Shown here piece by piece: positions 5,883 to 53,951 of a stretch of DNA of 64,000 bases. Below the pieces are notes generated by a model. It was not told where the DNA came from. It saw only the letters and a list, made by a program, of their open reading frames with translations, and did not search any database. The DNA is from a virus: the IMG/VR virus record IMGVR_UViG_3300001846_000239, positions 14,281 to 78,280 of that record. One strand, written 5' to 3'. Within the stretch, counting starts at the first letter, position 1. Each line of letters starts with the position of its first letter. The position numbers were made by a program, and so were the translations under genes.

Positions 5883-5956
5883 ATAACAAATACGTCTAAA
5901 AAATATATACTTTTTTTCAAAAAAGTGTGTACAAGTACGCTGAAACATCGTATAAT
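5883..5956 (+). promoter_or_regulatory. Early promoter with upstream A-tract/T-tract stem-loop
   Basis: TGTACA 5928-33, 17 nt, TATAAT 5951-56; upstream 52 nt match 31613-31664 at 45/52. Confidence 0.8.
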
Positions 5957-8218: not shown

Positions 8219-9349
8219 ATGAAAAACATTAAAATATCAACCCAAAACATTCTTAAGGAACTGAAAAAGAACTATCCAGATCAGACTCAATTCCGTAAGA
8301 ATGTTATCGAATCCACAGCAAAAGCTATGGGTTATACTGGTAAAGACTTTTATCCAATGCTTACAGCAGAAAATAGAGTCAAGATTGGTACTTATGATTT
8401 AAGTGCTTTACTTCAAACAGTAGAAATTGACACGAGTGTTGTGGATATTTCTCCAAAGGCGAAAATGCAATCAATTGTTAACGACGAGAAGACTTTTGCA
8501 AAGGCTGATCCTACGTTTGTACCTTGGGGTGCATTCCACGATCTAGTAAAGATTATAAAGTCAGAGATGTTCTATCCTGTTTACGTTTCAGGTTTGTCTG
8601 GTAACGGTAAGACCTTTATGGTAGAACAAGCTTGTTCGAAACTGAATAAGGAGTTTATACGTGTTCAAATCAATCCTGAAACAGACGAAGACGATTTGCT
8701 TGGTGGCTTTAGGCTCATCAACGGAGAAACTGTCTTCTCTAAAGGACCAGTTCTTAAAGCAATGGAAAACGGTGCAATATTATTGCTCGACGAAATTGAT
8801 AGAGCTACAAATAAAATTATGTGTCTTCAAGGTATATTGGAAGGTAAGCCTGTTCTGGTTAAGAAAACGGGCGAAACGATTACTCCGGCGCCTGGATTCA
8901 ATGTTATAGCAACAGCTAACACAAAAGGTAAAGGTTCTGAAGACGGTAGGTTTACTGCTGCTTCTATTATCGATGAAGCTTTCCTTGAAAGGTTTACTGT
9001 TGCGATTGATCAGAAGTTTCCATCGCCTTCAATCGAAACAAAAATTCTTAACAACCACATGTCTAAGTTTGGTACTGAAGACGAAGATTTCGTCGAAAAG
9101 CTAATCACTTGGGCCGATATTATTAGGAAGACTTTCTATGATGATGGTGTCGACGAAGTTATTTCAACTCGTAGGTTATGTCACATAGCTCAAACTTACT
9201 CTATCTTTAAGAATAGAGCAAAAGCGATCGATCTATGTATCGCAAGGTTTGATGAAGATACCAAGTCAGCTTTCTTAGATCTCTACAGCAAAGTTGATGC
9301 CGGAGTAGAAACTCTCGAAGAAACAGAGGATAACGATGGCGAAATCTAA
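8219..9349 (+). CDS. cobS: MoxR-family AAA+ ATPase (phage CobS-like)
   Basis: GLSGNGKT, LLLDEIDR, ANTKGKG, FLERF; ATG 8219 follows AAGGA. Confidence 0.85.
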   Translation: MKNIKISTQNILKELKKNYPDQTQFRKNVIESTAKAMGYTGKDFYPMLTAENRVKIGTYDLSALLQTVEIDTSVVDISPKAKMQSIVNDEKTFAKADPTFVPWGAFHDLVKIIKSEMFYPVYVSGLSGNGKTFMVEQACSKLNKEFIRVQINPETDEDDLLGGFRLINGETVFSKGPVLKAMENGAILLLDEIDRATNKIMCLQGILEGKPVLVKKTGETITPAPGFNVIATANTKGKGSEDGRFTAASIIDEAFLERFTVAIDQKFPSPSIETKILNNHMSKFGTEDEDFVEKLITWADIIRKTFYDDGVDEVISTRRLCHIAQTYSIFKNRAKAIDLCIARFDEDTKSAFLDLYSKVDAGVETLEETEDNDGEI

Positions 9350-9629
9350 AAAGCCCGATTATAAATTTAACGAAGGAGCTCTTATTGAAGAGCTCCAAAA
9401 GTATATTGATTCTACATACGGTGCACATTACGGTCAAGGTGGTTTACAATCATCAGAAGTAATTATTGATCGTGGACATGGCCTAGGATTTTTTCTAGGA
9501 AATGTTGATAAGTATAATGCGCGGTACGGTAAAAAAGGAACTCCAGAAGATCATAGGAAAGATCTGATGAAGGTCTTACACTATGGATTGCTTGCGCTCT
9601 ATGAGCACGATCGATTAAACTCAAATTAA
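9336..9629 (+). CDS. DUF3310-like protein (T7 gp1.7-like nucleotide kinase family)
   Basis: HY...GF.LGNV.KY.ARYGKK...DL.K.LHY pattern. Confidence 0.55.
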   Translation: MAKSKKPDYKFNEGALIEELQKYIDSTYGAHYGQGGLQSSEVIIDRGHGLGFFLGNVDKYNARYGKKGTPEDHRKDLMKVLHYGLLALYEHDRLNSN

Positions 9630-9632
9630 GTA

Positions 9633-9661
9633 TGTACAATCATTGTAAAATGTGTTATAAT
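9633..9661 (+). promoter_or_regulatory. Early promoter for gene 45
   Basis: TGTACA-17 nt-TATAAT (TGTGT extension). Confidence 0.8.
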
Positions 9662-9690: not shown

Positions 9691-10356
9691 ATGAAAATAT
9701 CAAGTGAAACTATTAGTATCCTCAAAAACTTTGCGGGTATCAATTCGAATCTAGTCTTTAAACCTGGAAAGGAACTCAAGACTATTTCCGAAGCAAAAAC
9801 AATTATGGCAAAAGCCTCTATCCTAGAAGATTTTCCAGGTGAGTTCGGTGTATACGATCTCAACGAGTTTTTGTCATTGTATAATCTTATGAATGATCCG
9901 GATCTTACATTTACAGATCACTATTTGATCATGTCCGACGGATCTCAAAAGATTAAGTATTTCTATTCTGAGGTAGACATTCTTACACAACCAAGTAAGG
10001 ATATCAATATGCCAGAGTGTGAAGTTGTATTGGATCTGACTATGGAAAACCTACAGAAGATTCAAAAAGCGGCCGCTGTTCTTGGTCACTCGGAATTGAG
10101 TTTTAGTAGTAAAGGTGGTGACGTTGTAGCATCTGTCTTTAATGAAAAAGATGCGACTGCGAATACTTTTGATATCGATCTAGGTACTACATCTACTGAA
10201 ACATTCAACTACGTCTTTAGCATCGCTAACCTTAAGATGCTTCAAGGTGATTATAAAGTATCGATTTCATCTAAGCTAATTTCTAATTGGCGCAACGCGG
10301 ATAATCCTTTAGATTATTATATCGCTTTAGAGAAATCATCAAGTTTCGGTGTATAA
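9691..10356 (+). CDS. 45: Sliding clamp gp45
   Basis: LKNFAGINSNL, FGVYDLNEFL, YYIALEK. Confidence 0.93.
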   Translation: MKISSETISILKNFAGINSNLVFKPGKELKTISEAKTIMAKASILEDFPGEFGVYDLNEFLSLYNLMNDPDLTFTDHYLIMSDGSQKIKYFYSEVDILTQPSKDINMPECEVVLDLTMENLQKIQKAAAVLGHSELSFSSKGGDVVASVFNEKDATANTFDIDLGTTSTETFNYVFSIANLKMLQGDYKVSISSKLISNWRNADNPLDYYIALEKSSSFGV

Positions 10357-10359
10357 ATA
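10352..10359 (+). promoter_or_regulatory. T4-type late promoter
   Basis: TATAAATA at end of gene 45. Confidence 0.6.
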
Positions 10360-10402
10360 AATGTGCACAGAAAAATTCTCATATACATTATGAGGATAAT
10401 GC

Positions 10403-10428
10403 GAGAAATGCCGACGGTCGGGTTTCTC
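10403..10428 (+). promoter_or_regulatory. Structured 5' leader hairpin (copy 1)
   Basis: GAGAAA-TG-CCGA-CGG-TCGG-G-TTTCTC; same architecture as 15194-15219. Confidence 0.65.
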
Positions 10429-10463
10429 AAAATTAGTCTATAAACTTTGCAAAGGAGAAGAAA

Positions 10464-10739
10464 ATGACTGAAGAAGTAAACGCAGCTGTAGATGCTGCAC
10501 CAGAGGAGCAAGTTGCTCCACAACTTTCACTACAAGATATCGCTACAGTAGTACAAGTAATTGATATTTGTTCTAAGCGTGGCGCTTTCGAAGGTAGTGA
10601 ACTAGAAGCAGTTGGCGCTGTAAGAACTCGTATTGTAGCATTCCTACAAGCGGCAGCCCCTGCTCAAGGTGAAGAAGTTTCAGAAGGTGAAGTACCTGCT
10701 GGCGACGATCTTCCTACCGAAGAAGCTGAAGTAGCTTAA
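10464..10739 (+). CDS. Conserved T4-like hypothetical protein
   Basis: SD AAGGAG; LSLQDI...IDICSKRGAF.G.EL..VG core. Confidence 0.7.
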   Translation: MTEEVNAAVDAAPEEQVAPQLSLQDIATVVQVIDICSKRGAFEGSELEAVGAVRTRIVAFLQAAAPAQGEEVSEGEVPAGDDLPTEEAEVA

Positions 10740-10754
10740 TCGAAGTAGCTTAAT

Positions 10755-10780
10755 GCGAGGGTAGCTCCCTCGCGTTTTAT
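10755..10780 (+). terminator. Intrinsic terminator
   Basis: GCGAGGG-TAGCT-CCCTCGC followed by GTTTTATT. Confidence 0.8.
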
Positions 10781-10805
10781 TAATTTTTATTATGAAGGAT
10801 ATATT

Positions 10806-11063
10806 ATGGATCGCAATGAATGTTCACGCTTAATTGAAGCGCTTCGAAAAGGTACAGTTACTGTTACCTTTCAAAAAATTGACTCTGACGAAATACGAGT
10901 CATGCCTTGTTCTCTCAACCCTGCTGTTTTAGAAGCAAATGGTGTTAAAGCCACAATTGATTCTATTAGTCCAGATTCAGACCATTTAGCGGTTTGGTCT
11001 TTGGATAAAGATGCATGGAGATCTTTCCGCGTATCAACGGTTCTTGGTTGGGAGGTACTATAA
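10806..11063 (+). CDS. WYL-like/SH3-barrel protein (DUF2693-like)
   Basis: VTVTFQKID...R.M.C...VWSLDKDAWRSFR. Confidence 0.6.
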   Translation: MDRNECSRLIEALRKGTVTVTFQKIDSDEIRVMPCSLNPAVLEANGVKATIDSISPDSDHLAVWSLDKDAWRSFRVSTVLGWEVL

Positions 11064-11998
11064 TGTCAGAATTTCTTTGGGTTGAAAAATATCGTCCACA
11101 AAAAATTCAAGATTGTATTTTACCAAAATCAATCAAGAAAACCTTTGAAGATATTGTTAGAGGAGGTGACCTACACAATATGCTTCTGACCGGAACAGCC
11201 GGCCTGGGTAAAACTACAGTTGCGAAAGCTTTGTGCAACGAACTTGAACTAGATTATCTTCTTATCAATGGATCCGAAGAATCTGGCATCGATACATTAC
11301 GTAACAAGATAAAACAATTCGCGTCTACTGTATCACTTCAAGGTGGCTATAAAGTAGTCATCTTAGATGAGGCTGATTACCTCAATGCACAATCAACACA
11401 ACCTGCTTTGCGTGGTTTCATCGAAGAGTTTTCTAACAATTGCCGTTTTATTTTGACGTGTAATTTTAAGAATCGAATCATTGATCCATTGCATTCTCGT
11501 TGTACAACAATCGAGTTTAATGTTTCTAAGAAAGATTCAGCTCCACTTTGTGGACAATTCCTTCATAGAGTTTGTGATATTCTTGAAAATGAGAATATTA
11601 CTTATGATAAAAAAGTAGTTGCTGAATTAATTATGAAACACATGCCAGATTGGCGTAAAGTTCTTAATGAACTTCAACGTTACAGTAGTAGCGGCGTTAT
11701 CGATTCAGGCATTTTAGTATCTTTATCGGAAGTATCTCTTAATGATCTTATGCTCCATCTTAAGGGAAAAAACTTTAAAGGTATGCGTCAGTGGGTGAGC
11801 AACAATATTGACTCTGAACCTGCGGCAATTTATCGTAAAATTTATGATAATATGAATGACTATATTGAACCACAAAGTATACCTCAATTGGTACTTATTT
11901 TGGCGGACTATCAATATAAAAATTCATTTGTTGCAGATCACGAACTTAATACTGTTGCTTGTCTTACTGAGGTAATGGCGGGGGTTCAATTTAAATGA
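11063..11998 (+). CDS. 44: Clamp loader large subunit gp44
   Basis: LWVEKYRP, GTAGLGKTT, DEAD, SRC; start moved to ATG 11063 (SD GGAGG). Confidence 0.95.
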   Translation: MSEFLWVEKYRPQKIQDCILPKSIKKTFEDIVRGGDLHNMLLTGTAGLGKTTVAKALCNELELDYLLINGSEESGIDTLRNKIKQFASTVSLQGGYKVVILDEADYLNAQSTQPALRGFIEEFSNNCRFILTCNFKNRIIDPLHSRCTTIEFNVSKKDSAPLCGQFLHRVCDILENENITYDKKVVAELIMKHMPDWRKVLNELQRYSSSGVIDSGILVSLSEVSLNDLMLHLKGKNFKGMRQWVSNNIDSEPAAIYRKIYDNMNDYIEPQSIPQLVLILADYQYKNSFVADHELNTVACLTEVMAGVQFK

Positions 11999-12375
11999 GC
12001 CCCTTCGATTACTTAAACGCAATCAACACAACTAAAAAGGATATTATGGTTGACGATATTGCTGAAAAGGCATATCCGGCTTTTATGGTAAATCGTGGGC
12101 TTTCGTATTTTCCAGACACTATTCTTTTTGCTAATGAAATGAATGTTAATCATCATATTGATAATAGGCTTCAGTTTGATTTTTTTATAAATATAATCAG
12201 TAAGAAGAAAAGATTCTCTAAATGGGCAAAACCTATTGATATAGATAATCTTGAACTGGTAAAAGAATATTATGGATATAGTACTGAAAAAGCTAAATCC
12301 ATTTTGCCATTACTAAATGATGCACAAATTAACGAATTGAAATTAAGGATTTACAAAGGTGGAAAACGAAAATAA
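11995..12375 (+). CDS. 62: Clamp loader small subunit gp62
   Basis: FMVNRGLSYFPDT, KKRFSKW, VKEYYGYS. Confidence 0.93.
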   Translation: MSPFDYLNAINTTKKDIMVDDIAEKAYPAFMVNRGLSYFPDTILFANEMNVNHHIDNRLQFDFFINIISKKKRFSKWAKPIDIDNLELVKEYYGYSTEKAKSILPLLNDAQINELKLRIYKGGKRK

Positions 12376-32739: not shown

Positions 32740-32779
32740 TATAAATAGTATTGTACAAATTCTACTGGAGTGTTATAAT
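32740..32779 (+). promoter_or_regulatory. Tandem late promoter and early-type promoter
   Basis: TATAAATA 32740-47; TTGTACA 32751-57 and TGT-TATAAT 32774-79. Confidence 0.7.
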
Positions 32780-32785
32780 ACTACT

Positions 32786-34150
32786 ATGAAAAGTTTTTTA
32801 TCTTTTGAACCGTTAAACGAGGCGTCTAAGTTACAACCTAGTCAGCTAAAGAAACCGAATGCTGCAACTGGTGAAGCTCGGATCGATATCCTAGCAAGAC
32901 TTATTCGAGATGGAAAGCCTCTTGAATTAGCTAAAGGCGGAACCTTTACTGTAACTGAAGTTGAAGATGCCTTGGCGCAAATTGAAATCTTTAAAAAACT
33001 TGGTAAAGCATTTAATCTCCACGGAGACGGTAAAACAATTTCTACTTCCGAACTAGCCAAATCATCAGTATTTGGTGGCGGAAGTGGTGCAGGCGGTGGT
33101 ACATTAAATACAAAAATCACCGAATCACATCAGTGTGTTATATGTCAAGCAGTACTAGATCATGGTGTTCAGTCTAAGGAATACTTCGAAGATCCAAACG
33201 TGCTTAAAGATGCATATAAAAAAGTTGAAGTAGATGCATCCCTTGATGAAATTATGTCAGTTGATGAGACGTGGTTTCATTCGTCATATGAATCCGCTAT
33301 ATTACTTCTTAAAGAAGGTTATATTAACAAAAACCAAGTATTCCACAGAAATAGTAAACTGATGAATTTAGTCTATGCACAGAAAAATATCGCATATAAA
33401 AATTCTGATCAGAAACCTGTTAAAGATGATAAGTGGAATCCAGGTGATATATGGGCAATTGAAAAAGGATTTAATGTAAAAGATCTAAACATAGATTCTA
33501 TTGCCGGTTATAACAAATCATTATTACAAGCTTTCGTTGATAGAAAACTAGTTGGTATATCACTCAAGCTTGTGAAAAAGAAAGCAAAAGCTAAAGTATA
33601 TAATACACAAATTCCCCCCGATACAGATGATCATAAGTTAGAAAGAATCACATTCCAAGGCGATAAGCGTGGAACTTTCTGGTCAAATAAAACAGGAACA
33701 GTTTTCTTCGATTCTGGAAAAATGGATTTCAGAGCCGGAACGCTAGGCGGTGCAATCAAAGCAGAAATTATTCTGAAAACAGCACGCGGTGGTGGTGCAG
33801 GTTATGGTGTAATGCTAGATGCGGCTAAGCAAGTATTTAGAAAAACTATACCTACAAATAAAGCTATAAATAGAACAGCAAAAGATATTACTAAAAATAA
33901 TAAAAGAGCACTTAGTGTCTTTTGGAAGCTATATAGTCATTTTTATAAAAACGACACTTATGAAAACTTTGAGAAAGAAATCAGTAAGAAAGATGTCTAT
34001 TGGATCGGAGCCAAAATGCAAAGCTTGTATGTTTTGTATTATGTAGATACAAATACTGGCCCGAAAGCAAATAGATTTATTACTAAACTTGTTAATTACG
34101 CTGGATCTAAATTAGAAGATTCTAGTGTATATGTTAAGGTGTATGAATAA
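32786..34150 (+). CDS. Putative internal head protein with PD-(D/E)XK-like nuclease motifs
   Basis: Leader MKSFLSFEPLNEA; TESHQC, KWNPGDIW, GISLK. Confidence 0.5.
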   Translation: MKSFLSFEPLNEASKLQPSQLKKPNAATGEARIDILARLIRDGKPLELAKGGTFTVTEVEDALAQIEIFKKLGKAFNLHGDGKTISTSELAKSSVFGGGSGAGGGTLNTKITESHQCVICQAVLDHGVQSKEYFEDPNVLKDAYKKVEVDASLDEIMSVDETWFHSSYESAILLLKEGYINKNQVFHRNSKLMNLVYAQKNIAYKNSDQKPVKDDKWNPGDIWAIEKGFNVKDLNIDSIAGYNKSLLQAFVDRKLVGISLKLVKKKAKAKVYNTQIPPDTDDHKLERITFQGDKRGTFWSNKTGTVFFDSGKMDFRAGTLGGAIKAEIILKTARGGGAGYGVMLDAAKQVFRKTIPTNKAINRTAKDITKNNKRALSVFWKLYSHFYKNDTYENFEKEISKKDVYWIGAKMQSLYVLYYVDTNTGPKANRFITKLVNYAGSKLEDSSVYVKVYE

Positions 34151-35394
34151 TGAGATCATTTAAAAATTACGTACCGTTACAAGAAGCAGCAAAAAATACT
34201 CATATGACTCATATCGAGGATTTGATTCTTGACGGTGGTGTTAAGGGGGCGCGCCAAGCTATCATCGCACTCAGGTCGTTGCGAGATATGTTACAAGGTA
34301 ACGCAAAATCTGCAGTAGACGTTACAGTCAAGTGGGACGGTGCCCCCGCCGTATTTGCGGGTGAAGATCCAGAAACTGGAGAATTCTTCGTTGCGAAAAA
34401 AGGAATCTTTGCAAAGAATCCTAAGATTTATAAATCCCATGCTGATATTGATGCAGATACAAGTGGCGATCTAGCTAAAAAATTAAAGCTTGCATTTGAT
34501 AACCTAAAGGATTTAGGTATTAAAGGAGTTATTCAAGGTGATTTTATGTTCGACTCCTCAGATTTAAAAAAGGAGAAGATAAATGGAGTTACTCATATTG
34601 TGTTTCATCCTAACACTATTGCCTATGCAATACCTGTTGACAGTCCTCTTGCTAAGGAGATTAGATCAGCTAAGGTCGGAATTGTTTGGCATACTACATA
34701 CTCAGGAGCAACATTCGAAACGATGAGAGCTGAGTTTGGAAGAGAAATCGTTCCAAAATTAAGAAAATCTAAAAGCGTATGGATGCAAGATGCAACATTA
34801 CCCGATCTATCTGGTACTGCTACATTGACAAAAGCTGAAACTGACGAACTCAATAAGAACCTATCTAATGCTGGTAAAATGTTTAAGAAGATTGCAGCTA
34901 GCACATTGAAAGATATTGAATCGAATAAAGAGCTCAATATGATTATTAATATATACAATAATCGTAAGGTAAGAGAAGGTCAAAGAATCACGGATACAAA
35001 GAAACATGCAACCGGCCTTATTATGTTTGTGCAAGATCGTTATCAAAAAGAAATCGATAAAAGATCAAGTCAAGCTGGTAAAGATGTACAAATTGCAAAA
35101 AGAGACGAATTACTTAAGTTTTTTGATAAAAAGAATCTAAAAAACTTGCAAAATGTGTTCGATTTGCAAAATTTTGTTATTGATAGCAAATTAATTATTA
35201 TAAATAAACTAAACAAACTGAACAAAATTGGGACGTTTGTCAAAACTAAGTCCGGATTTAAGGTAACCAACCCAGAGGGTTTTGTTGCCATAGATCGTAT
35301 GGAAGGTGGAGCAGTTAAGCTTGTTGATAGATTAGAATTTTCTACTAACAACTTTAGCAAAGATATTATAAAAGGTTGGGACAATCCTAACTAA
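34150..35394 (+). CDS. Putative internal head protein, ligase-superfamily nucleotidyltransferase (DUF6267-like)
   Basis: Leader MRSFKNYVPLQEA; K61WDG, QGDFMF, E376GFVA, K390. Confidence 0.6.
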   Translation: MRSFKNYVPLQEAAKNTHMTHIEDLILDGGVKGARQAIIALRSLRDMLQGNAKSAVDVTVKWDGAPAVFAGEDPETGEFFVAKKGIFAKNPKIYKSHADIDADTSGDLAKKLKLAFDNLKDLGIKGVIQGDFMFDSSDLKKEKINGVTHIVFHPNTIAYAIPVDSPLAKEIRSAKVGIVWHTTYSGATFETMRAEFGREIVPKLRKSKSVWMQDATLPDLSGTATLTKAETDELNKNLSNAGKMFKKIAASTLKDIESNKELNMIINIYNNRKVREGQRITDTKKHATGLIMFVQDRYQKEIDKRSSQAGKDVQIAKRDELLKFFDKKNLKNLQNVFDLQNFVIDSKLIIINKLNKLNKIGTFVKTKSGFKVTNPEGFVAIDRMEGGAVKLVDRLEFSTNNFSKDIIKGWDNPN

Positions 35395-35411
35395 TGGGAA
35401 CCGAGGATCAG

Positions 35412-35795
35412 ATGAAATCTTTTAAAGAGCACAGCGCAGAACTATCTGAAGAAAGCGTAGACTTCTCTGAAGCTATGTCTTTGCAGCATAGAATGAAAAT
35501 GAAAGCTGCATTCAGAAAAAATAAAGCAAAGATTGCGCTAGGTAAAAAGAAAGCCGAACGTAAATTAGCGACTCCAGAAAAGCTTCAAAAACGAGCCGAG
35601 AGACACGCTCGTGATTTACTAGTTAAGAAAATCCTTAAGGATAAAGATAAGAGTGATCTATCTTATGCAGGCCGTGAAGGTATCGAAAAGAAATTAAAGA
35701 ATAAAAAAGCAGCAATCAAAAAGATTGCTAGAAAACTATTACCTCAAATTAAGAAGGCTGATAGAGCTAAATTAAAACAAAAAGGTGGTGAATAA
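35412..35795 (+). CDS. Lys/Ala-rich basic putative internal protein
   Basis: Leader MKSFKEHSAELSEE; SD GAGG. Confidence 0.6.
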   Translation: MKSFKEHSAELSEESVDFSEAMSLQHRMKMKAAFRKNKAKIALGKKKAERKLATPEKLQKRAERHARDLLVKKILKDKDKSDLSYAGREGIEKKLKNKKAAIKKIARKLLPQIKKADRAKLKQKGGE

Positions 35796-35799
35796 TATT

Positions 35800-37113
35800 A
35801 TGGAATTTAAGAGTTTTAGTGACTATTTGACGGAACAAAAGGGTGAAATTACTTTTGTATTTGGCCGATTTAATCCACCTACGACAGGACATGAAAAGCT
35901 TTTCGAGAAACTAAAGAAAGTTTCTGGAGGGTCATATCGAATATACGCGTCAAAATCGCAAGATCCAAAAAAGAACCCACTACCATTTAAAGTAAAAATT
36001 AAGTTTATGCGCAAAATGTTTCCTAAGCATGCGCGAAACATTATGGCTGATGCAGATGTAAGAACTGTATTGGATATTGCAGTAAAGCTTTATGATCAAG
36101 GGTTTACTAAAGTCCAAATGGTTGCTGGTAGTGATAGAGTAAAAGAATTTGATACACTATTAAACAAATATAATGGTGTAAAAGCAAGACACGGTTTCTA
36201 TAATTTTGAAGAAGGTGTTAAAGTTATTTCAGCTGGCGAAAGAGATCCAGACGCTGAAGGTGTTGCTGGTATGTCGGCCTCAAAATTGAGAGCCTTTGTT
36301 GCCGCAGGTGATCTACAAGGATTTGCTGATAATTCATTAGAAATTCCAGGTGATGGAATACAAACCTTATACTATGCCTTAAGAAAAGGCATGGGCCTCA
36401 AAAAAGAATCAACGAGAAAGCACATAGAATTACAACCAGTTTCTGAACATAGAGAAAAGTTTGTAGAAGGTTCTCTATTTAAAGCCGGTGATGAAGTTGT
36501 GTTAAAAGAAACAAATCAAGTTGGTATTATCGAAAGATGCGGAACAAACTTTCTTGTAGTTGAGTTCGGTCAATGGAAAAAGAGAGTCTGGTTAGATCAA
36601 GTCGAACTTGTAGAAAAGTGCGGTAGTGATCATAAGAAGCCGGCTAAAGAAGATAAAGAACCACAAAAGCGCAAAGCTGCATATCATAAAGATTTAAGTA
36701 AATCTACTCAAGATAAGCGTCAAGCTCATTTCAATAAGCAAGCAAAAAAAGATGACGATGATCCTAGTGCGTATAAACCTGCACCAGGTGATGCTCAAGC
36801 AAAAACAAAGCCATCTAAACATACTAAAAAATATCAACAAATGTTTGGTGAAGAAACTCTTTCACTGGCTGACTTTTTACTTGATGAAGGCCAGGCTGAT
36901 GCAGCATTAAAGAAAAAAGCTGAAAAGACTGGTATGCCATTAGGTATTCTAAGAAAGGTATTTGATAGAGGTGTTGCTGCATGGAGAACAGGTCATAGAC
37001 CTGGAACAAATTCAATTCAATGGGGATTAGCGAGAGTTAATTCTTTTGTTACTAAATCAAAAGGTACCTGGGGCGGGGCTGATAAAGACCTTGCTGCTAA
37101 AGTAAGGAGTTAA
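35800..37113 (+). CDS. HIGH-motif nucleotidyltransferase (phage cytidyltransferase-like) with C-terminal accessory domains
   Basis: Leader MEFKSFSDYLTEQ; FGRFNPPTTGH, VAGSDR, MSASK; C-terminal RG.AAW.TGHRPG...W..ARVNSF domain. Confidence 0.75.
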   Translation: MEFKSFSDYLTEQKGEITFVFGRFNPPTTGHEKLFEKLKKVSGGSYRIYASKSQDPKKNPLPFKVKIKFMRKMFPKHARNIMADADVRTVLDIAVKLYDQGFTKVQMVAGSDRVKEFDTLLNKYNGVKARHGFYNFEEGVKVISAGERDPDAEGVAGMSASKLRAFVAAGDLQGFADNSLEIPGDGIQTLYYALRKGMGLKKESTRKHIELQPVSEHREKFVEGSLFKAGDEVVLKETNQVGIIERCGTNFLVVEFGQWKKRVWLDQVELVEKCGSDHKKPAKEDKEPQKRKAAYHKDLSKSTQDKRQAHFNKQAKKDDDDPSAYKPAPGDAQAKTKPSKHTKKYQQMFGEETLSLADFLLDEGQADAALKKKAEKTGMPLGILRKVFDRGVAAWRTGHRPGTNSIQWGLARVNSFVTKSKGTWGGADKDLAAKVRS

Positions 37114-37114
37114 A

Positions 37115-37732
37115 ATGCAAAGGTTTAAAGATATTAAAGAATTAAAAGGTATAGTTGAAAATTACGACTATATCAACGAAATGACTGATACTCAACTTGA
37201 CGAGTATGTTAGAGGTTTAAGCGAAGAACAGCTTGACGAATTAATCGGTAGGTTGGTAAAAGGCGTTGGTAGACTAGCGGCTAAAGGTGCTAAAGCTGGT
37301 GGTAGCCTAGCAGTTAAGGGAGCCAAGGCCGGAGCCAAAAGAATGTCTGCTGACGGTAGAGCCGCTGCTGCTGAAAAGAAAGCTGCTAAACTAGAAAAGA
37401 AAAGAAAAGCTTTAGAGCGAATCCAAGCTGCGCGTGATAAAATCAGAGCAGAAAAAGAAGCTATTAAAAAGAAAAAAGATTCAATGCCACCAAATACTTT
37501 GGCTAAACTAAGAGCGAAACTAAAGCAAAAAGTTTCTAAAGTAAATGATGCAGAAAATAAACTAAAAGAATATAAAGAAGAAGACGAGGAAGAAGTAGAA
37601 GAGTCTTCAGCTTCATGGGCTAAGTCTTTAGAGAAGATCGCTAAGCAGAGACAGCTAGATAAAATCTCTGATAAAGATAAAGAAACCTTAATGAAGATTG
37701 CTGCAATGATGGCTAAAGAAAAGAAGAAGTAA
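37115..37732 (+). CDS. Lys/Ala-rich putative internal/core protein
   Basis: Leader MQRFKDIKE; repeated LxE sites. Confidence 0.6.
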   Translation: MQRFKDIKELKGIVENYDYINEMTDTQLDEYVRGLSEEQLDELIGRLVKGVGRLAAKGAKAGGSLAVKGAKAGAKRMSADGRAAAAEKKAAKLEKKRKALERIQAARDKIRAEKEAIKKKKDSMPPNTLAKLRAKLKQKVSKVNDAENKLKEYKEEDEEEVEESSASWAKSLEKIAKQRQLDKISDKDKETLMKIAAMMAKEKKK

Positions 37733-37733
37733 T

Positions 37734-37970
37734 ATGAAATCTTTTAAAGAACAAGCTAATTTAGATGAAGCTCCATTAGTCATGAAAGACTTAGATATGG
37801 TTAAGACTTTATTTCATAAAATTGAATCAGACTTAGCAAAAAATGTAAGATCCAATAAAAGTGAAAAGAACTGGCCTATTCTAAAGCAATTAGCTAGTAT
37901 TGCAGGTTATGGTATTACTAAAAAAGGCCAGACTTCAGGCAAGTCTTACAGATATGATTTAAAAAAATGA
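37734..37970 (+). CDS. Small putative internal protein
   Basis: Leader MKSFKEQANLDEA. Confidence 0.6.
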   Translation: MKSFKEQANLDEAPLVMKDLDMVKTLFHKIESDLAKNVRSNKSEKNWPILKQLASIAGYGITKKGQTSGKSYRYDLKK

Positions 37971-38485
37971 TTACGTTTAAAGACTACATTACTGAGCAAA
38001 AAAAGATTAAGTGGCTTAAAAAGCCCGATGGCTATATTGGTAATAATAAAAAAGTATTTAAACACGTTTCTTCAGATGGTAAGTTTGAGATTCGTTTATC
38101 TGGTATGGATAGTTCTCGTAAGAACAAAGATGGTAGTCAGAAAGTAATGCCTACATTGTTTGATATGAGTGGCCATACACCAAGGCATCCAGTTACAGCA
38201 TATAAAAATGTAGCTGCAGCTAAGAAAGATGCTCAAATATGGGCAGATAGACATTGGACTATTACTGAAGGCGAAGGTAAATATAAAGGCGAAACATGGG
38301 AAGATGGTTATAAAAGGCGAGTTGTAAAAACAACCGATCCTGAGCATAAAGAAAAAGGATATAATTGGAGAATCAAAGGCAAAGAAAGACCTGAGATTTC
38401 AATTAAATTATATAAACAAAAACCAGATTTTGCTGAATTTAAAAAGCAAATGAAGCGAGTTGCGGGGCACGAATTCGGTGGATAG
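37967..38485 (+). CDS. Putative internal protein, two ITE-delimited modules
   Basis: Leader MITFKDYITEQ; second ITEGEG site. Confidence 0.6.
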   Translation: MITFKDYITEQKKIKWLKKPDGYIGNNKKVFKHVSSDGKFEIRLSGMDSSRKNKDGSQKVMPTLFDMSGHTPRHPVTAYKNVAAAKKDAQIWADRHWTITEGEGKYKGETWEDGYKRRVVKTTDPEHKEKGYNWRIKGKERPEISIKLYKQKPDFAEFKKQMKRVAGHEFGG

Positions 38486-39146
38486 TTTTAAAGAACATTA
38501 TGATATAATGGAAGGTGTTAATGATCCTGCTATATTTAAAGCAATATTTTTAGCAGGTGGCCCAGGAAGCGGTAAATCGTTTGTTGTGGGTAAAACATCT
38601 TTGATGGCATTAGGATTTAAATTAATTAATTCCGATGATGCCTTTGAAAAAGGTTTGAAAAAAGCTGGATTGACAATGAATCCAGAAGATATATTTTCAG
38701 TTCAAGGCCAGGAAGTAAGAGCTAAAGCGAAAGCGCTTACTGGTAAAAAAATGAATATGGCTTTGAGAGGAAGAAACGGCATTGTAATCGATGGTACTGG
38801 TAAAGACTATGCTAAGATTAAAAAGCAAGTTGATATGCTAAGAAATATCGGTTATGCTGTTCATATGATTTTTGTAAATACAGATTTAGAAACAGCTTTA
38901 GACAGAAATCAGTCTAGACCAAGAAGTCTACCTGATGCGGAAGTCGAAAAGATGTGGAAAAATGTACAAAAGAATATCGGTAAATTCCAAGGGCTATTTA
39001 GGAATAGACTGATTATTGTTGATAACTCTAAGGGAGCAGATATTGAAACTGCAACTTTAGAAGCTTATAAAGATATTATGGCATGGTCAAAAAGACCACC
39101 CGAAAACGCAATAGCAATTAAATGGATAAAGAGTCAAACAAAATGA
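38478..39146 (+). CDS. P-loop kinase (PNK/zeta-toxin-like)
   Basis: GTG start, leader MDSFKEHYDIMEG; GGPGSGKS, NSDD, IDGTG, RN.SR.R lid. Confidence 0.75.
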   Translation: MDSFKEHYDIMEGVNDPAIFKAIFLAGGPGSGKSFVVGKTSLMALGFKLINSDDAFEKGLKKAGLTMNPEDIFSVQGQEVRAKAKALTGKKMNMALRGRNGIVIDGTGKDYAKIKKQVDMLRNIGYAVHMIFVNTDLETALDRNQSRPRSLPDAEVEKMWKNVQKNIGKFQGLFRNRLIIVDNSKGADIETATLEAYKDIMAWSKRPPENAIAIKWIKSQTK

Positions 39147-39352
39147 AAAATTTTAAAACAATAAGAGAAGCCTTGAAGAATCCTTACAAAGGAAAACCAG
39201 AACGTGATCTAAAGCGCAAGCTCGATTCCTTTGAATCGCAACTTCAAGACTTAATTAAAAAGAGTCGAGGACGTCAGCGAAGAGAAATCGAAGGTGAAAT
39301 CCGAGATATGGAAACAAAAGTGCAACAGGTTAGAGCTGCACTAAAGGATTAA
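39143..39352 (+). CDS. Small coiled-coil putative internal protein
   Basis: Leader MKNFKTIREA. Confidence 0.55.
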   Translation: MKNFKTIREALKNPYKGKPERDLKRKLDSFESQLQDLIKKSRGRQRREIEGEIRDMETKVQQVRAALKD

Positions 39353-39356
39353 TATA

Positions 39357-39725
39357 ATGCATTCTTTTTTAGAACATATAGAAGAGAGGTTTGGTCTATA
39401 TGAAGGTGTTCATGTACCATTGGAACAACCAATGATTGAAATCGAAGAGCAAGAGCTGAATAAGCCAAAACGCTCTAGCGGTAAAAAGAAGTATGTAGTA
39501 TATGTTAAAAATCCTAAAACAGGGAATATTAAGAAAATAGAATTTGGGGACGAAAAAGGTGGTCTTACTTCAAAAATTAACGATAGAGAAGCAGCTAGAA
39601 ACTTCGCATCACGACATAACTGCGATACGAAGACAGATAAATTATCTCCAGGATATTGGGCTTGCAGATTGCCTAAATATGCGAAAGACTTGGGACTTAA
39701 AGGCGGTGGAAACTATTTTTGGTAA
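39357..39725 (+). CDS. Basic putative internal protein
   Basis: Leader MHSFLEHIEE; KKIEFG...NFASRHNC...YWAC. Confidence 0.6.
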   Translation: MHSFLEHIEERFGLYEGVHVPLEQPMIEIEEQELNKPKRSSGKKKYVVYVKNPKTGNIKKIEFGDEKGGLTSKINDREAARNFASRHNCDTKTDKLSPGYWACRLPKYAKDLGLKGGGNYFW

Positions 39726-39996
39726 GCCATATTGGGAAAACGGAGAAATTCGTATCTTCGACCCTACGGTTGAGGATAGCGAATTTGTTTGGCATAGAGA
39801 TGATGAAAACAGAGAAATAGAGATTTTAGAAGGCGAGGGTTGGCAATTCCAACTTCAAGGTTGTTTACCTTGGCTTTTAAAAAAGGGTATGGTATTTAGA
39901 ATTACTAAATTAGAATATCATCGATTAATAAAAGGCGTTACGCCACTAAAATGTAGGGTGTGTAGATATGACCACAGCAGCACAACAACGGGCTGA
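39706..39996 (+). CDS. Small cupin-like protein
   Basis: Probable GTG start 39706; WHRD...IEILEG.GW.F...YHRLIKG. Confidence 0.5.
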   Translation: METIFGKPYWENGEIRIFDPTVEDSEFVWHRDDENREIEILEGEGWQFQLQGCLPWLLKKGMVFRITKLEYHRLIKGVTPLKCRVCRYDHSSTTTG

Positions 39997-40267
39997 ACAA
40001 GCGGCAAGACTTGACAGAATCGAAGAAAAAATCGATAAAATGTCAGACGTTATTATTTCTTTAGCAAGAGCTGAAGAAAGAATTGCTACTATGGCCGAAT
40101 TTGGTAAACAACAAGGAGAGCAGATTCTAACTCTTATAAATAGAGTTGATAGGCTTGAAATATTGGTGAGGGAGAATGCCCAAACCGTAAACGTAATTAA
40201 TAAATTATTCTGGATAGTAATTGCTGGCGCCGCCACAGCTATCACAGGAATGCTTTTCATACAATAG
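39968..40267 (+). CDS. Coiled-coil protein with C-terminal TM
   Basis: RLDRIEEKIDK...LARAEERI; hydrophobic C-terminus. Confidence 0.6.
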   Translation: MTTAAQQRAEQAARLDRIEEKIDKMSDVIISLARAEERIATMAEFGKQQGEQILTLINRVDRLEILVRENAQTVNVINKLFWIVIAGAATAITGMLFIQ

Positions 40268-40277
40268 GAGAACTAAT

Positions 40278-40988
40278 ATGAAACTTAAAGATGCAAAAAC
40301 TTTGAGCATTGCTGAGGCCGTTAGCGATGTACTCGAAGGTAAAGTAAAAAAGGAAGAAGTAAAATATCCACACGATATGTTTCATCCAGAAACTGGTGAG
40401 AAAGAAGTAGCCAAAAACGAAGCAGAGCATAAAGCCCTTGCTAAGAAAGGTTACACTCACGAGAAACCAGAAGTTGACGAAGTAGCAGAGCCTAAAGCTA
40501 AAGGTGAAAAAGACTTTAAAGACGCTCATGTTGCAGCTGTGTCTGGTGAAAAAGAAGATGGTACAGTTGTTAAAGAAGCTGAAGAAAAAGAAGAAGAAGA
40601 AGAAGAAGAAGTTGAAGAAGCTAAATCTAAGTTTTCAAAGTCGCTTCTTAAGAAAGCAAGTGACATCGCTCTTTCAATGAGTGGTAACATGACTGGTGCT
40701 GTTAAGAAAATCGAAAAAATTAAAAAAGGTTTGTCTGACGACCCAGAAGTTAAAGCTGCATTGCAACTAGCTAACGAAGAAGTAACTAAAGAAATTATGG
40801 ATGAAGCTTATGCAATGAATGAAGCCAAAGATAAAGTTGCAGAAGATAAAGAAAGATATCAAAAATTCTTCCAAAAAGCACTGAAAAAGTTTGGTGTTGA
40901 TTCACCTGCTCAACTCAAAGGTGATAAAAAGAAAGAGTTTTTTGATTACGTAGATGCAAACTACGAGGCTGATGACGAAGAAGACTAA
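40278..40988 (+). CDS. Acidic prohead-core/scaffold-like protein
   Basis: SD AGGAG; Glu/Lys-rich with many xxE sites; C-terminal YQKFF..ALKKFGV.SP..L...KKEFF. Confidence 0.55.
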   Translation: MKLKDAKTLSIAEAVSDVLEGKVKKEEVKYPHDMFHPETGEKEVAKNEAEHKALAKKGYTHEKPEVDEVAEPKAKGEKDFKDAHVAAVSGEKEDGTVVKEAEEKEEEEEEEVEEAKSKFSKSLLKKASDIALSMSGNMTGAVKKIEKIKKGLSDDPEVKAALQLANEEVTKEIMDEAYAMNEAKDKVAEDKERYQKFFQKALKKFGVDSPAQLKGDKKKEFFDYVDANYEADDEED

Positions 40989-41010
40989 AATTATCTGATA
41001 TAGATAATAT

Positions 41011-41382
41011 ATGATGAAAATATTTGACGAGTTGACAAACAGGAACTTTGAGCTCTATGCGTCACAGCATTACAATAACCCGGAATGCTGTGACGTTGAA
41101 GAGTTCAAGGAAGATTTAACCAGGTTTAAGTATCTAAAAAGATTACTTAGACGCTATGAGCAATCTGGTGATCTGCAAGAGCGATTAATACTAAATCACA
41201 TTATTGTTATTTTTAATGTATTTGGTATTAAAGCAGCAAATAGAATGATTTGGTTCAAAGTAGAACCTGAACATTATTCTACGCTAAAAACATTTTTAGT
41301 GTTCTTGCATTATATGCCAGAGGATTATAAAGTAGAAATCCCTCTAGATAAAAACGTTATTGAGAGGTTAAGGAAAATTTAA
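41011..41382 (+). CDS. Conserved T4-like hypothetical protein
   Basis: YASQHY.NP.C...EF.EDL.RFKY.KRLL, ERLILNHII. Confidence 0.7.
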   Translation: MMKIFDELTNRNFELYASQHYNNPECCDVEEFKEDLTRFKYLKRLLRRYEQSGDLQERLILNHIIVIFNVFGIKAANRMIWFKVEPEHYSTLKTFLVFLHYMPEDYKVEIPLDKNVIERLRKI

Positions 41383-41975
41383 TGAGTATAGTATCAAGAA
41401 CAGCTGATTTATTCTATGCGTTTAGATTCCTAAAGCTATTAGTAACGCCTTGGGAAAAAACTACTGCATTTGAATTAGGCATTATCGATAAAGATGGTAA
41501 CACCTTAAAGAAAAGCAAAGATAGAACTACTTCTCAAGAAAGGTCTGCATATACTGTTTTTCATAGATTAGTATTTAATCTGAAAAGACTATTGGGCAAA
41601 GTGCCAGGTGGTTCATCAAGATTAGCTACTTATGCTTCGGCTTTGTTTTTAATTAAAGAACATGCTAATCTAACTGAAGATGAAATCAGAGATGTACTAA
41701 ACAATATATTTGAAGATCTTGAAGAAACAATTGATCTATCAGAAAGTAGTGCATGGTTTGAAAAGAATAATAAACTTGCGCCAGGAACTTATAAGCTGGT
41801 TCAAGAAGTAGCATCACCACAAACTGGTGAAGTTATTGCGCATATAAATACTAATGTTAAGGCATTAGATTTTGTAGAACCTCACGGTTCTATATTTGGT
41901 TTAAATGTATACCAAGTGGAACATACATTAACAAAACAAAAAATACTTATTACGAGTATGGATATAAAAAGATGA
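41382..41975 (+). CDS. Conserved T4-like hypothetical protein
   Basis: FRFLKLL.TPWEK..AF.LGIID..G. Confidence 0.7.
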   Translation: MSIVSRTADLFYAFRFLKLLVTPWEKTTAFELGIIDKDGNTLKKSKDRTTSQERSAYTVFHRLVFNLKRLLGKVPGGSSRLATYASALFLIKEHANLTEDEIRDVLNNIFEDLEETIDLSESSAWFEKNNKLAPGTYKLVQEVASPQTGEVIAHINTNVKALDFVEPHGSIFGLNVYQVEHTLTKQKILITSMDIKR

Positions 41976-42184
41976 AGACATTTAAAGACATGTGGGAAGA
42001 CGCGGCAGCTACATCAGTAGCGTCAGGTGACATTGCTTTACCTGCCGATGCAGTTCATGATAAAAAGAAAAAGAAAAAAGATTTGTATGACGGGAGAACG
42101 AAAGCCGGTCGTGCGTTCATAGAAAGGATATTGGCTAGAAGAAAAGCCGCTGAACAGAAAAGGATCGATAATGAAGAAGTTTAA
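41972..42184 (+). CDS. Small putative internal protein
   Basis: Leader MKTFKDMWEDA; DGRTK motif. Confidence 0.6.
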   Translation: MKTFKDMWEDAAATSVASGDIALPADAVHDKKKKKKDLYDGRTKAGRAFIERILARRKAAEQKRIDNEEV

Positions 42185-42401
42185 TGATATTAGAGAAGAC
42201 GCTTTTGATAAATCAAAAGAAAAGAATGTTGACCAACTGAATAAAAAGCTTCAGAGTATGTCTCAGCATATTAACAACTTAGAAAAGTTGGACAAGCAAG
42301 GTGAAGGCAAAGGCGAAATGGCTAAAGAGATTAAAGTCTTCAAATCTAAATTCTTTGAACTGAATAAGGCTTTAGCAAAATTAGAAAATAGATTAGTGTA
42401 A
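42171..42401 (+). CDS. Small coiled-coil putative internal protein
   Basis: Leader MKKFNDIREDA. Confidence 0.55.
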   Translation: MKKFNDIREDAFDKSKEKNVDQLNKKLQSMSQHINNLEKLDKQGEGKGEMAKEIKVFKSKFFELNKALAKLENRLV

Positions 42402-52607: not shown

Positions 52608-53287
52608 AGAAACCTAACGTTTTAAAGCTCGAACATTTAGTTAAATTAGATCCATTAACAGAAAACCAGAAACTAGCATTTGACGCATTCGAATCGGGCA
52701 GTCACATGTGTCTTGATGGATCGGCGGGTACGGGTAAGACTTTTATATCTTTATATTTGGCACTTGAAGCCGTATTGAAAAAAGATTATGAAAAAGTCGT
52801 GATTGTAAGATCTGCGGTACCGACAAGGGATATGGGCTTTCTTCCAGGAACTCAAGAAGAAAAGGAAGATGCTTATACTCAACCTTATAAAGCTATCGTA
52901 AGTGATTTATTTGATGATAGTGAAGCTTGGGATAAGCTGACCCGATTAAATAAAAAAGTTGAATTTTTAACCACATCATTTATTCGTGGTTTAACTATTA
53001 AGAATGCAGTTGTTATTGTGGACGAATCACAAAACTGCAATTATCATGAGTTGTGTTCTGTTATTACAAGGCTTGGTGAAGATTGTAGATTCATTATGGC
53101 AGGTGATTATTATCAATCTGATTTTACTCGTAAGGGAGATCAAGATGGTATAAAAGACTTTATCAATATCATTAAACATATGAATCAATTTGAACACATT
53201 GAATTTAAATGGGAAGATATTGTCAGAAGCGGTTTTGTGAGAGACTTTATTATGACAAAGGAACTATATGAAAATGGGAAACTTTAA
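52604..53287 (+). CDS. phoH: PhoH-like ATPase
   Basis: GSAGTGKT, GFLPG, FIRG, DESQN, AGDYYQSD, DIVRSG. Confidence 0.93.
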   Translation: MKKPNVLKLEHLVKLDPLTENQKLAFDAFESGSHMCLDGSAGTGKTFISLYLALEAVLKKDYEKVVIVRSAVPTRDMGFLPGTQEEKEDAYTQPYKAIVSDLFDDSEAWDKLTRLNKKVEFLTTSFIRGLTIKNAVVIVDESQNCNYHELCSVITRLGEDCRFIMAGDYYQSDFTRKGDQDGIKDFINIIKHMNQFEHIEFKWEDIVRSGFVRDFIMTKELYENGKL

Positions 53288-53951
53288 ACATGAAAAGATT
53301 GATCTTGGATACGAAGACATGGATGCTAACACTACTCCCGATGGGAGAAAGTATTCTGCTCCTAATGGTAGGAAGTATCCTTCTATTACTACCGTACTTT
53401 CAATTTTAAGTGAAGATGCAATAAGAGAATGGCGCGCACGCGTCGGAGAAGAAGAGGCTAATAGAGTATCTCATAGAGCCTCAACTCGTGGTACCGCAGT
53501 TCACGAAGTTTTAGAAAGATACGTTGATAATGAGGAGGATTACTACAAAGATTGTAACCTCGTAGTCAAATCTAACTTCATGGAAGTGAAAGATATTCTT
53601 GATAAAAACCTTACAACAGTTTATGCTCAAGAAGCTCCACTTTATTCGGAGCATCTAGGTGTAGCCGGAAGAGTAGATTGTGTCGGTATTTGGAATGGTA
53701 AACCTTCTATTATCGATTACAAGACATCGGCTAAACCTAAAAAGAAAAGCTATTGTGAAAATTACTTTATTCAAGAAACCGCGTATGCTATTATGTGGGA
53801 AGAAAGAACAGGTATGCCAATTACACAGTTGGTAACACTCATTGCTGGTGATCAAGGCGCTCAAGTTTTTATTGAGCATCGTGATAACTGGACAGAAAAA
53901 TTATTGGATACTATATCAGAGTTCAATATGAGAAAATTATTTGGGAGATAA
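53268..53951 (+). CDS. PD-(D/E)XK exonuclease (Cas4/RecB-like)
   Basis: YPSITTVL, RGTAVH, AGRVDC, IIDYKTS, Q..AY. Confidence 0.88.
   Translation: MKMGNFKHEKIDLGYEDMDANTTPDGRKYSAPNGRKYPSITTVLSILSEDAIREWRARVGEEEANRVSHRASTRGTAVHEVLERYVDNEEDYYKDCNLVVKSNFMEVKDILDKNLTTVYAQEAPLYSEHLGVAGRVDCVGIWNGKPSIIDYKTSAKPKKKSYCENYFIQETAYAIMWEERTGMPITQLVTLIAGDQGAQVFIEHRDNWTEKLLDTISEFNMRKLFGR

Follow-up and report, generated by a model that had tools for sequence, protein, structure and literature searches.

Twelve genes of an uncultured marine T4-like phage open with one short N-terminal pattern, M-x-(S/T)-F-(K/L)-(D/E)...(L/I)-x-E. They lie at 32786-42401, all on the plus strand, of a 64,000-nt window that covers bases 14281-78280 of the 112,994-bp IMG/VR record IMGVR_UViG_3300001846_000239 (positions are those of the window unless the record is named). 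As read from the sequence, each of these otherwise unrelated proteins appears to carry an N-terminal propeptide of 9-13 residues that corresponds to the capsid targeting sequence (CTS) of T4. We consider that the block is probably a set of twelve cargo proteins that bear a T4-type capsid-targeting leader and are packaged through it; by analogy with T4, we infer that the leader would be cleaved at the predicted Glu and that the proteins would be ejected into the host together with the DNA. The principle is known from T4, and what is new is its presence and expansion in a marine branch, the divergent consensus and the set of enzymes that it involves. The phage belongs to a branch related to Kyanoviridae and not to Straboviridae.

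The leader opens twelve genes and almost no others

The preliminary description had reported about 13 consecutive genes with this leader. The leader cluster itself stands, the twelve N-termini quoted there being found at real gene starts; its count and contiguity had to be corrected, since a run of ten leader genes (32786-39725) is separated from a further two (41972-42401) by five genes that lack the leader (39679-41975).

We number the leader proteins P1 to P12 in gene order and mark the predicted cut by a slash. P1 (32786..34150, 454 residues, MKSFLSFEPLNE/A) belongs to an orphan family, phrog_1462, and has a predicted mature isoelectric point (pI) of 9.4, and P2 (34150..35394, 414 residues, MRSFKNYVPLQE/A) is a DUF6267 protein, predicted to be an RNA-ligase-like covalent nucleotidyltransferase. 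They are followed by P3 (35412..35795, 127 residues, MKSFKEHSAELSE/E), which is Lys/Arg-rich with a predicted mature pI of 10.5 and a net charge of +24; by P4 (35800..37113, 437 residues, MEFKSFSDYLTE/Q), with an HxGH (TTGH...SASK) cytidylyltransferase/NMNAT-like domain and DUF5824; and by P5 (37115..37732, 205 residues), basic and Lys/Ala-rich, whose leader is either MQRFKDIKE/L or cut after IVE at residue 15. P6 (37734..37970, 78 residues) has the leader MKSFKEQANLDE/A, and P7 (37967..38485, 172 residues), with MITFKDYITE/Q, is the closest match to the T4 CTS. P8 (38478..39146, 222 residues, leader (M)DSFKEHYDIME/G) is a P-loop kinase of the AAA_33/zeta/PNK-like kind with the Walker A motif GPGSGKS; its start is placed at the GTG at 38478 because its homologue P0243 has the N-terminus MLSFAEHIKDIDEG. 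The run of ten ends with P9 (39143..39352, 69 residues, MKNFKTIRE/A), basic and probably a coiled coil, and P10 (39357..39725, 122 residues, MHSFLEHIEE/R), a member of phrog_7595. Beyond the leaderless genes come P11 (41972..42184, 70 residues, MKTFKDMWE/D) and P12 (42171..42401, 76 residues, MKKFNDIRE/D).

The leaders are 9-13 residues long and end in (L/I)xE in 11 of the 12 proteins, P11 having M-W-E instead. Residue 4 is Phe in 11 of 12, residues 5 and 6 are mostly Lys followed by Asp or Glu, and residue 7 is His, Ile, Tyr, Phe, Ser, Gln or Met. The DNA upstream of the copies is unrelated and the Ser/Thr codons vary while the amino acid stays; what is conserved is therefore the peptide and not a DNA repeat.

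The specificity of the pattern was assessed with the regular expression M.{1,3}F[KLNS].{1,8}[LIM].E, applied to all in-frame ATG, GTG and TTG codons with at least 40 codons to the stop in the whole record. There were 17 matches among the 1,666 starts on the plus strand and 2 among the 644 on the minus strand, and 12 of the 17 are the leader gene starts, all inside 9.6 kb. The remaining five are three positions within longer open reading frames (ORFs; 3341, 47640 and 62760), one 44-residue TTG ORF and one possible gene start (record 109439). Across the whole record the scan marks almost no other gene start.

Two further N-termini, MGNFKHEKIDLGYED (53274-53951) and MKTFNEATNELLDF (record 80601-80954), look like the leader, lack a proper (L/I)xE and fail the full expression; a third, MNEFFSAPKLIASAINE (record 109439-109987, outside the window), passes it, its I-N-E coming at residues 15-17 and so farther along than in the leaders of the cluster. 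None of these three was counted as cargo.

The leader resembles the T4 capsid targeting sequence and ends in a T4-type protease site

A 1996 study by Mullaney and Black is said to be the source for the capsid targeting sequence of T4 IPI, IPII and IPIII (and Alt). This sequence is MKTYQEFIAE (PMC8442874), with residues 4 and 7 as the main targeting determinants and residues 8 and 10 serving processing (PMC9026906). P7 (MITFKDYITE) and P10 (MHSFLEHIEE) align to it almost residue for residue. Like the leaders described here, the T4 sequence is a short N-terminal propeptide on unrelated proteins (IPI, IPII, IPIII and Alt), with an aromatic residue 4 and an (L/I)xE end that is the gp21 site; both genomes encode a gp22 scaffold and a protease of the gp21 type, the mature proteins are basic and Lys-rich in both, and in both the cargo set varies among related phages. 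The differences are that the consensus is M-K-S-F-K-E here and M-K-T-Y-Q-E in T4, that the leader has 9-13 residues instead of a fixed 10, and that twelve bearers stand in one block as against three internal proteins (IPs) plus Alt. The cargo here also includes ligase-like, NMNAT-like and kinase enzymes, and the packaging, cleavage and injection known for T4 are proposed here by analogy.

The T4 genome (NC_000866) holds two exact copies of the sequence, at 65689-65718 and 66386-66415 on the minus strand, whose DNA is identical over all 30 nt. Since these ipII/ipIII copies are identical in DNA and the twelve marine leaders differ in their codons, the marine set would be older or more diverged than the T4 pair.

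The machinery that would act on such a leader is encoded by the same phage. A short way upstream of the window lies a head module arranged as in T4 (large terminase, sheath, tube, portal, gp21-type protease, acidic scaffold, gp23); the prohead protease is a peptidase S77 (PF03420, 149.5 bits; record 10291-10944), and the gp22 scaffold, gp23 and portal are also present in the record. In gp23 the stretch FIGE/D aligns with the T4 gp23 maturation site FLTE/A (after Glu65), so the specificity of the prohead protease appears to be conserved. When the gp21 homologue was modelled in complex with P6 residues 1-40, the score was 0.00, which is evidence neither way.

A second known system invites comparison. 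The ejection (E) proteins of the giant phages SPN3US, phiKZ and 201phi2-1 carry propeptides that the protease removes; they are located inside the head and are cut after Glu by a T4-related prohead protease, and paralogues among them share N-terminal sequences that are thought to be CTS-like (PMC5694885). Their propeptides differ in being mostly longer than 100 residues, with the motif A/S-x-E, as against 9-13 residues and (L/I)-x-E here.

The leader is an optional addition to basic proteins

Comparison of P1 and P2 with 120 close homologues each shows that the first 12-14 residues vary considerably and that the pattern is kept. A search of 1.8 billion cluster representatives returned 2,670 relatives of DUF6267, and 97 diverse members were aligned. 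Seventeen of these start right at the N-x-H-h-x-H-h-E-D core; the other 80 are extended, and 66 of the 80 extensions carry the leader. The third residue before the cut (site position P3, distinct from the protein P3) is Leu in 44, Ile in 15, Phe in 5 and Val in 2, so that Leu and Ile together account for 59 of the 66; the Glu is often followed by a small residue. Judged from this alignment, the leader is an optional N-terminal add-on in the DUF6267 family.

AlphaFold2 models are consistent with such a module. P1 was modelled with a pLDDT of 86.8 and P2 with a pLDDT of 93.9 and a pTM of 0.91; residues 1-11 of P1 and 1-10 of P2 fall below 50 and lie outside the fold. The leader of both proteins is thus predicted to be disordered and external to the confident folds.

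After the predicted cut all twelve leader proteins are basic, with pI 9.4-10.5 and net charges of +4 to +24, whereas the five leaderless proteins of the block have pI 4.9-7.0 and 22 of the 133 other ORFs of the record (16.5%) reach a pI of at least 9.3. In T4, the internal proteins are likewise highly basic and touch the packed DNA through their lysines (PMC8442874; PMC3012670).

Related phages carry a cargo orthologue in their virions

The block sits between uvsX/gp41 and nrdA, the same position as in cyanophages, and for one of these virion data exist. In purified virions of S-SM1 analysed by mass spectrometry, the cytidylyltransferase T4-GC190 reached 25 peptide counts, more than the scaffold (22) and the portal (18), according to Sullivan et al. 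(2010; PMC3037559). Mapping the clusters given there to the S-SM1 record places six virion-detected genes in the syntenic block, SSM1_188, 190, 191, 192, 195 and 197. Two of them have a leader: SSM1_190 begins MKKFSAFLNE/A, and SSM1_192, with 7 counts, begins MLSFKELQE/K. The S-SM1 copy of DUF6267 has no leader and is not among the virion proteins in these data. P4 and SSM1_190 are orthologues (41.7% identity over 295 residues, E 6e-62), and all 120 nearest cyanophage homologues of SSM1_190 start MKKFSAFL-x-E-A, with x the only variable position in residues 1-11. In S-SM1, scanning the first 50 kb for the leader gave just two weak matches, both on tiny hypothetical genes.

Virions of S-CREM2 also contain a cytidylyltransferase (ORF154; PMC10665884); the authors of that report note that such enzymes are a frequent find in cyanophage virions and that the host may receive them in this way (PMC10665884). 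The likeness to these phages is that P4 is orthologous to the S-SM1 enzyme and lies in the same syntenic block, and that the S-SM1 and Syn9 orthologues have the MKKFSAFL-x-E leader; the difference is that the cyanophages examined have about two clear leader genes in the block as against twelve here. As far as their text was searched, the S-SM1 and S-CREM2 reports give no mechanism for the presence of the cytidylyltransferase in virions and only speculate on its delivery (PMC3037559, PMC10665884), and our literature searches found no mention of a CTS-like leader or protease site on proteins of marine T4-like phages.

The nearest annotated phages to the present record are Phage C48C1, OM43 phage Melnitz, Pelagibacter phage HTVC008M and T4-like cyanophages, none of them reaching 60% protein identity, and megablast against 50,697 phage records found no near-identical record to the block. 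Melnitz and C48C1 have at least 5-6 leader genes at the same locus. Three uncultured contigs (L008-L010) encode a P1 of 49-71% identity and share the block too, each with about 8-11 leader genes and varying cargo. T-even internal proteins are likewise a diverse set with the CTS alone in common (PMC3012670), and the occurrence of the same leader on varying cargo in these five relatives mirrors the T-even internal protein loci.

Some details of these relatives were noted in passing. In C48C1 (OQ984149, about 10630-10690) the annotated cytidyltransferase start, MNPPTIGH, falls inside the nucleotide-binding motif, and the open frame upstream of it reads V-IKNFSQYLLE-EE; because this is leader-like, the true start is probably a GTG that restores the leader, and the GenBank start lies too far downstream. 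Contig L009 encodes a PAP2 phosphatase with the leader MKNLKSFLQE (11374-12006), and contig L010 a leaderless HAD_PNKP-type phosphatase (9193-9654) just upstream of its block; these phosphatases may bear on an end-healing role of the enzyme set.

Probable packaging through the leader and its alternatives

The interpretation of the leader as a T4-type, CTS-like element, put forward in the preliminary description, is backed by the S77 protease, gp22 and gp23 of the record, the gp23 site, the CTS residues, the optional and disordered nature of the add-on, the basic cargo and the presence of the S-SM1 orthologue in virions. In the mechanism that we propose, the leader would dock the protein on the scaffolding core during prohead assembly, the protease would cut after (L/I)-x-Glu and release the leader, the basic, Lys-rich mature proteins would remain among the packed DNA, and the mature cargo would be ejected with the DNA into the next host.

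Several observations weigh against this interpretation. Leader position 7 is not consistently hydrophobic, unlike in T4 (Tyr4, Phe7), and at site position P3 the protein P11 has Met and not Leu or Ile; since its relatives have Val or Met there, the P11 cleavage site is atypical. The mature cargo shows no clear depletion of internal (L/I)xE sites, with 17 observed and 18.6 expected (a ratio of 0.92; 1.18 for other genes). Detection in virions is limited to orthologues of one cargo family, that of P4. The S-SM1 virion proteins SSM1_188, 191, 195 and 197 have no clear leader, so the leader is not the sole route into the particle. Moreover, an early-type promoter abuts the first leader gene, so that expression may not be purely late, which weakens the argument from a late operon.

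The bearers might instead be parts of the prohead core or scaffold that are degraded and expelled at maturation, as T4 gp22, gp67 and gp68 are, and are neither retained nor injected. T4 core proteins are degraded by the same protease (PMC5694885), and P4 and P5 hold five and six internal (L/I)xE sites, respectively; however, P2, P3, P6, P8, P9, P11 and P12 hold none, the cargo consists of basic folded enzymes as opposed to an acidic scaffold protein, and in S-SM1 the P4 orthologue, with its 25 counts, exceeds the portal in mature virions. On this evidence we regard a role as degraded core components as unlikely.

That the shared N-terminus is a tag for another process, such as recognition by a modifying enzyme or a chaperone, timed degradation, or docking to the tail or baseplate, is in our view quite improbable. 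It would sit well with the leaderless S-SM1 virion proteins of the block; however, a radical-SAM domain was not found in the 113-kb record (63% complete according to CheckV), the leader ends in an exact gp21 site of which the middle residue alone is free, its resemblance to the T4 CTS goes residue by residue, and all its bearers are basic. Selection at the mRNA level, in which A/U-rich first codons would aid initiation of coupled genes without a Shine-Dalgarno sequence and the peptide would be functionless, is highly improbable, for although many leader genes overlap or abut the preceding stop, with weak ribosome-binding sites and A/T-rich first codons, the Ser/Thr codons change while the amino acid is kept, (L/I)xE stands at no fixed distance, 7-13 codons downstream, some 130 further genes in the equally AT-rich genome start otherwise, and the pattern survives in relatives whose leader sequence has otherwise changed.

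Cargo proteins include three predicted enzymes

It had been proposed that several of the leader proteins are enzymes, and this is borne out for three, an RNA-ligase-like protein, an HxGH nucleotidyltransferase and a P-loop kinase.

In P2, the residues K61, D63 and G64 (KxDG), E376-G377 (EG) and K390 are invariant across the 97 aligned DUF6267 sequences, whose mean column identity is 37%. When the P2 model was compared with known structures by VIA-align, every match with more than 160 aligned residues was an RNA ligase or tRNA ligase (Z 6.7-8.4), the best being the Naegleria RNA ligase (Z 8.4, 188 residues), followed by T4 Rnl2, Trl1 and T4 Rnl1 (Z 6.7-7.8); a Z under 8 does not decide the matter. 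Foldseek gave DNA ligases only as weak rows (E 0.1-0.7), and at the sequence level P2 had no match to a solved ligase. With the motifs in place and moderate evidence from the fold, P2 is predicted to be an RNA-ligase-like adenylyltransferase with a large helical insert. DUF6267 is, on these motifs, a previously unrecognised ligase-like family, and this forms part of what is new here.

P4 combines the motifs TTGH and MSASK and matches the PHROG 'cytidyltransferase' families (5.8e-90); its Pfam CTP_transf_like score, 19.5 bits, is just below the cut-off of 21, and the NadR NMNAT model matches at 4.8e-4, far under its cut-off. P8, with the Walker A motif GPGSGKS, scores 49.7 bits with AAA_33 (cut-off 27) and 42 bits with Zeta_toxin (cut-off 22.3), and these matches make it an AAA_33/zeta/PNK-type P-loop kinase. 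Fusion proteins of other phages join DUF6267 to a P8-like kinase, to an HxGH nucleotidyltransferase or to a P10-like domain (P0243, P0315, P0328, P0242; the likeness of the domain in P0242 to P10 was judged by eye). By the Rosetta-stone argument, the fusions to the kinase and to the HxGH enzyme suggest that the cargo enzymes probably act together.

T4 Pnkp and Rnl1 heal and seal host-cleaved tRNA and RNA. The P2 model aligns with the Naegleria RNA ligase, T4 Rnl1/Rnl2 and the fungal tRNA ligase Trl1, which combines ligase and kinase, over 166-215 residues, keeping KxDG, EG and the Lys, and a PNK-like kinase is co-encoded here and fused to DUF6267 in other phages. The differences are the large helical insert of P2 between motifs III and IV, with Z values in a range that is safe for fold similarity only, and the HxGH nucleotidyltransferase partner, which has no counterpart in T4 Pnkp/Rnl or in Trl1. 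It is possible, if rather doubtful, that the ligase-like protein, the HxGH enzyme and the PNK-like kinase form an injected counter-defence kit, which would seal host-cleaved tRNA or RNA before phage expression or rebuild NAD+ after an NADase-type abortive infection.

P1 belongs to a family of proteins of about 450 residues with 478 metagenomic homologues and an invariant D-K-W-N-P-G-D...S-L-K block. No related structure was found by sequence search of the PDB, Foldseek against the PDB returned nothing at E <= 0.001, the best VIA-align match had a Z of 4.4, and the AFDB clusters contained only uncharacterised proteins. A nuclease assignment was considered and rejected, the hints to restriction enzymes of the CCGG type and the leads to the HpaII/HaeIII type (Atlas score 0.83) and to MspI (Z 3.0) being weak. 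P3, P5, P6, P9, P11 and P12 are small or low-complexity basic proteins, and by analogy this small basic cargo resembles the T4 internal proteins, including IPII and IPIII.

Implications

If the reading as a counter-defence kit held, myophages abundant in the ocean would bring ready-made enzymes against defences triggered as the DNA enters, and the injected proteome of thousands of uncultured T4-like phages could be read from sequence through the leader. The leader also offers a mechanism for how cytidylyltransferase-type enzymes, whose genes lie at a distance from the structural ones, reach the virions of marine T4-like cyanophages, and it suggests that the T4 capsid-targeting principle spans the T4 superfamily, into some of the most abundant ocean phages; searches with DUF6267 and with the cytidylyltransferase each gave at least about 8,000 metagenomic matches. 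Should the leader prove a reliable address tag, the packaged set would be predictable and its members prime candidates for counter-defence in the first minute of infection, and the leader could be used to load foreign proteins into the heads of marine phages.

Leaderless genes and promoters of the block

The genes of the record are nearly all on the plus strand, and its GC content is about 35%. The five leaderless genes between P10 and P11 are likewise on the plus strand: one at about 39679-39996, whose start is uncertain; one at 39968-40267, whose product has a C-terminal transmembrane segment; one at 40278-40988, encoding an acidic protein (pI 4.9) with a poly-Glu run and the N-terminus MKLKDAKTLSIAEAVSDVLEGK; a DUF7207 gene at 41011-41382; and one at 41382-41975. 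Relatives keep the DVLEGK stretch of the 40278-40988 protein (L009 18091, L010 17763), which might serve as another type of protease site; alternatively, the protein might be a core component.

A T4-type late promoter, TATAAATA, stands on the plus strand at 32740..32747, between genes and 39 nt ahead of the first leader gene. All three copies named in the preliminary description (32740, 35199 and 41843) are present, and there are two more; the internal copies, at 33865..33872, 35199-35206, 40135-40142 and 41843-41850 (plus strand), are possible internal late promoters. Genome-wide, the plus strand carries 27 copies of the octamer and the minus strand 3, several copies lying ahead of head and tail genes; the 9.6-kb block has 5, where the density on the plus strand of the whole genome would predict about 2.3, an excess that is not significant alone.

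An early-type promoter, with the consensus TGTACAA-N14-(G)TGnTATAAT, has 17 plus-strand copies in the genome and one on the minus strand, near 2183. Within the window the plus-strand copies are at 5928, 8155, 9633, 15930, 18514, 21540, 27723, 31658, 32752, 44419, 49851 and 54177, with 5 more beyond it. The in-window copies that were measured end about 18-32 nt, mostly about 30 nt, before a gene of replication or nucleotide metabolism; the copy at 32752..32779 (plus strand), which has TGTACAA, a 16-nt spacer and the extended -10 element TGTTATAAT, was overlooked in the preliminary description; it lies between the late promoter and the first ATG of the block and ends just 7 nt before that ATG. 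A search of the literature found no published temporal expression class for the cyanophage orthologues, and among metatranscriptomes a single one shares 8% of the sequence words of the stretch. The copy at 32752-32779 could reflect early or leaderless expression, or could be degenerate, and dual early and late expression would not contradict packaging.

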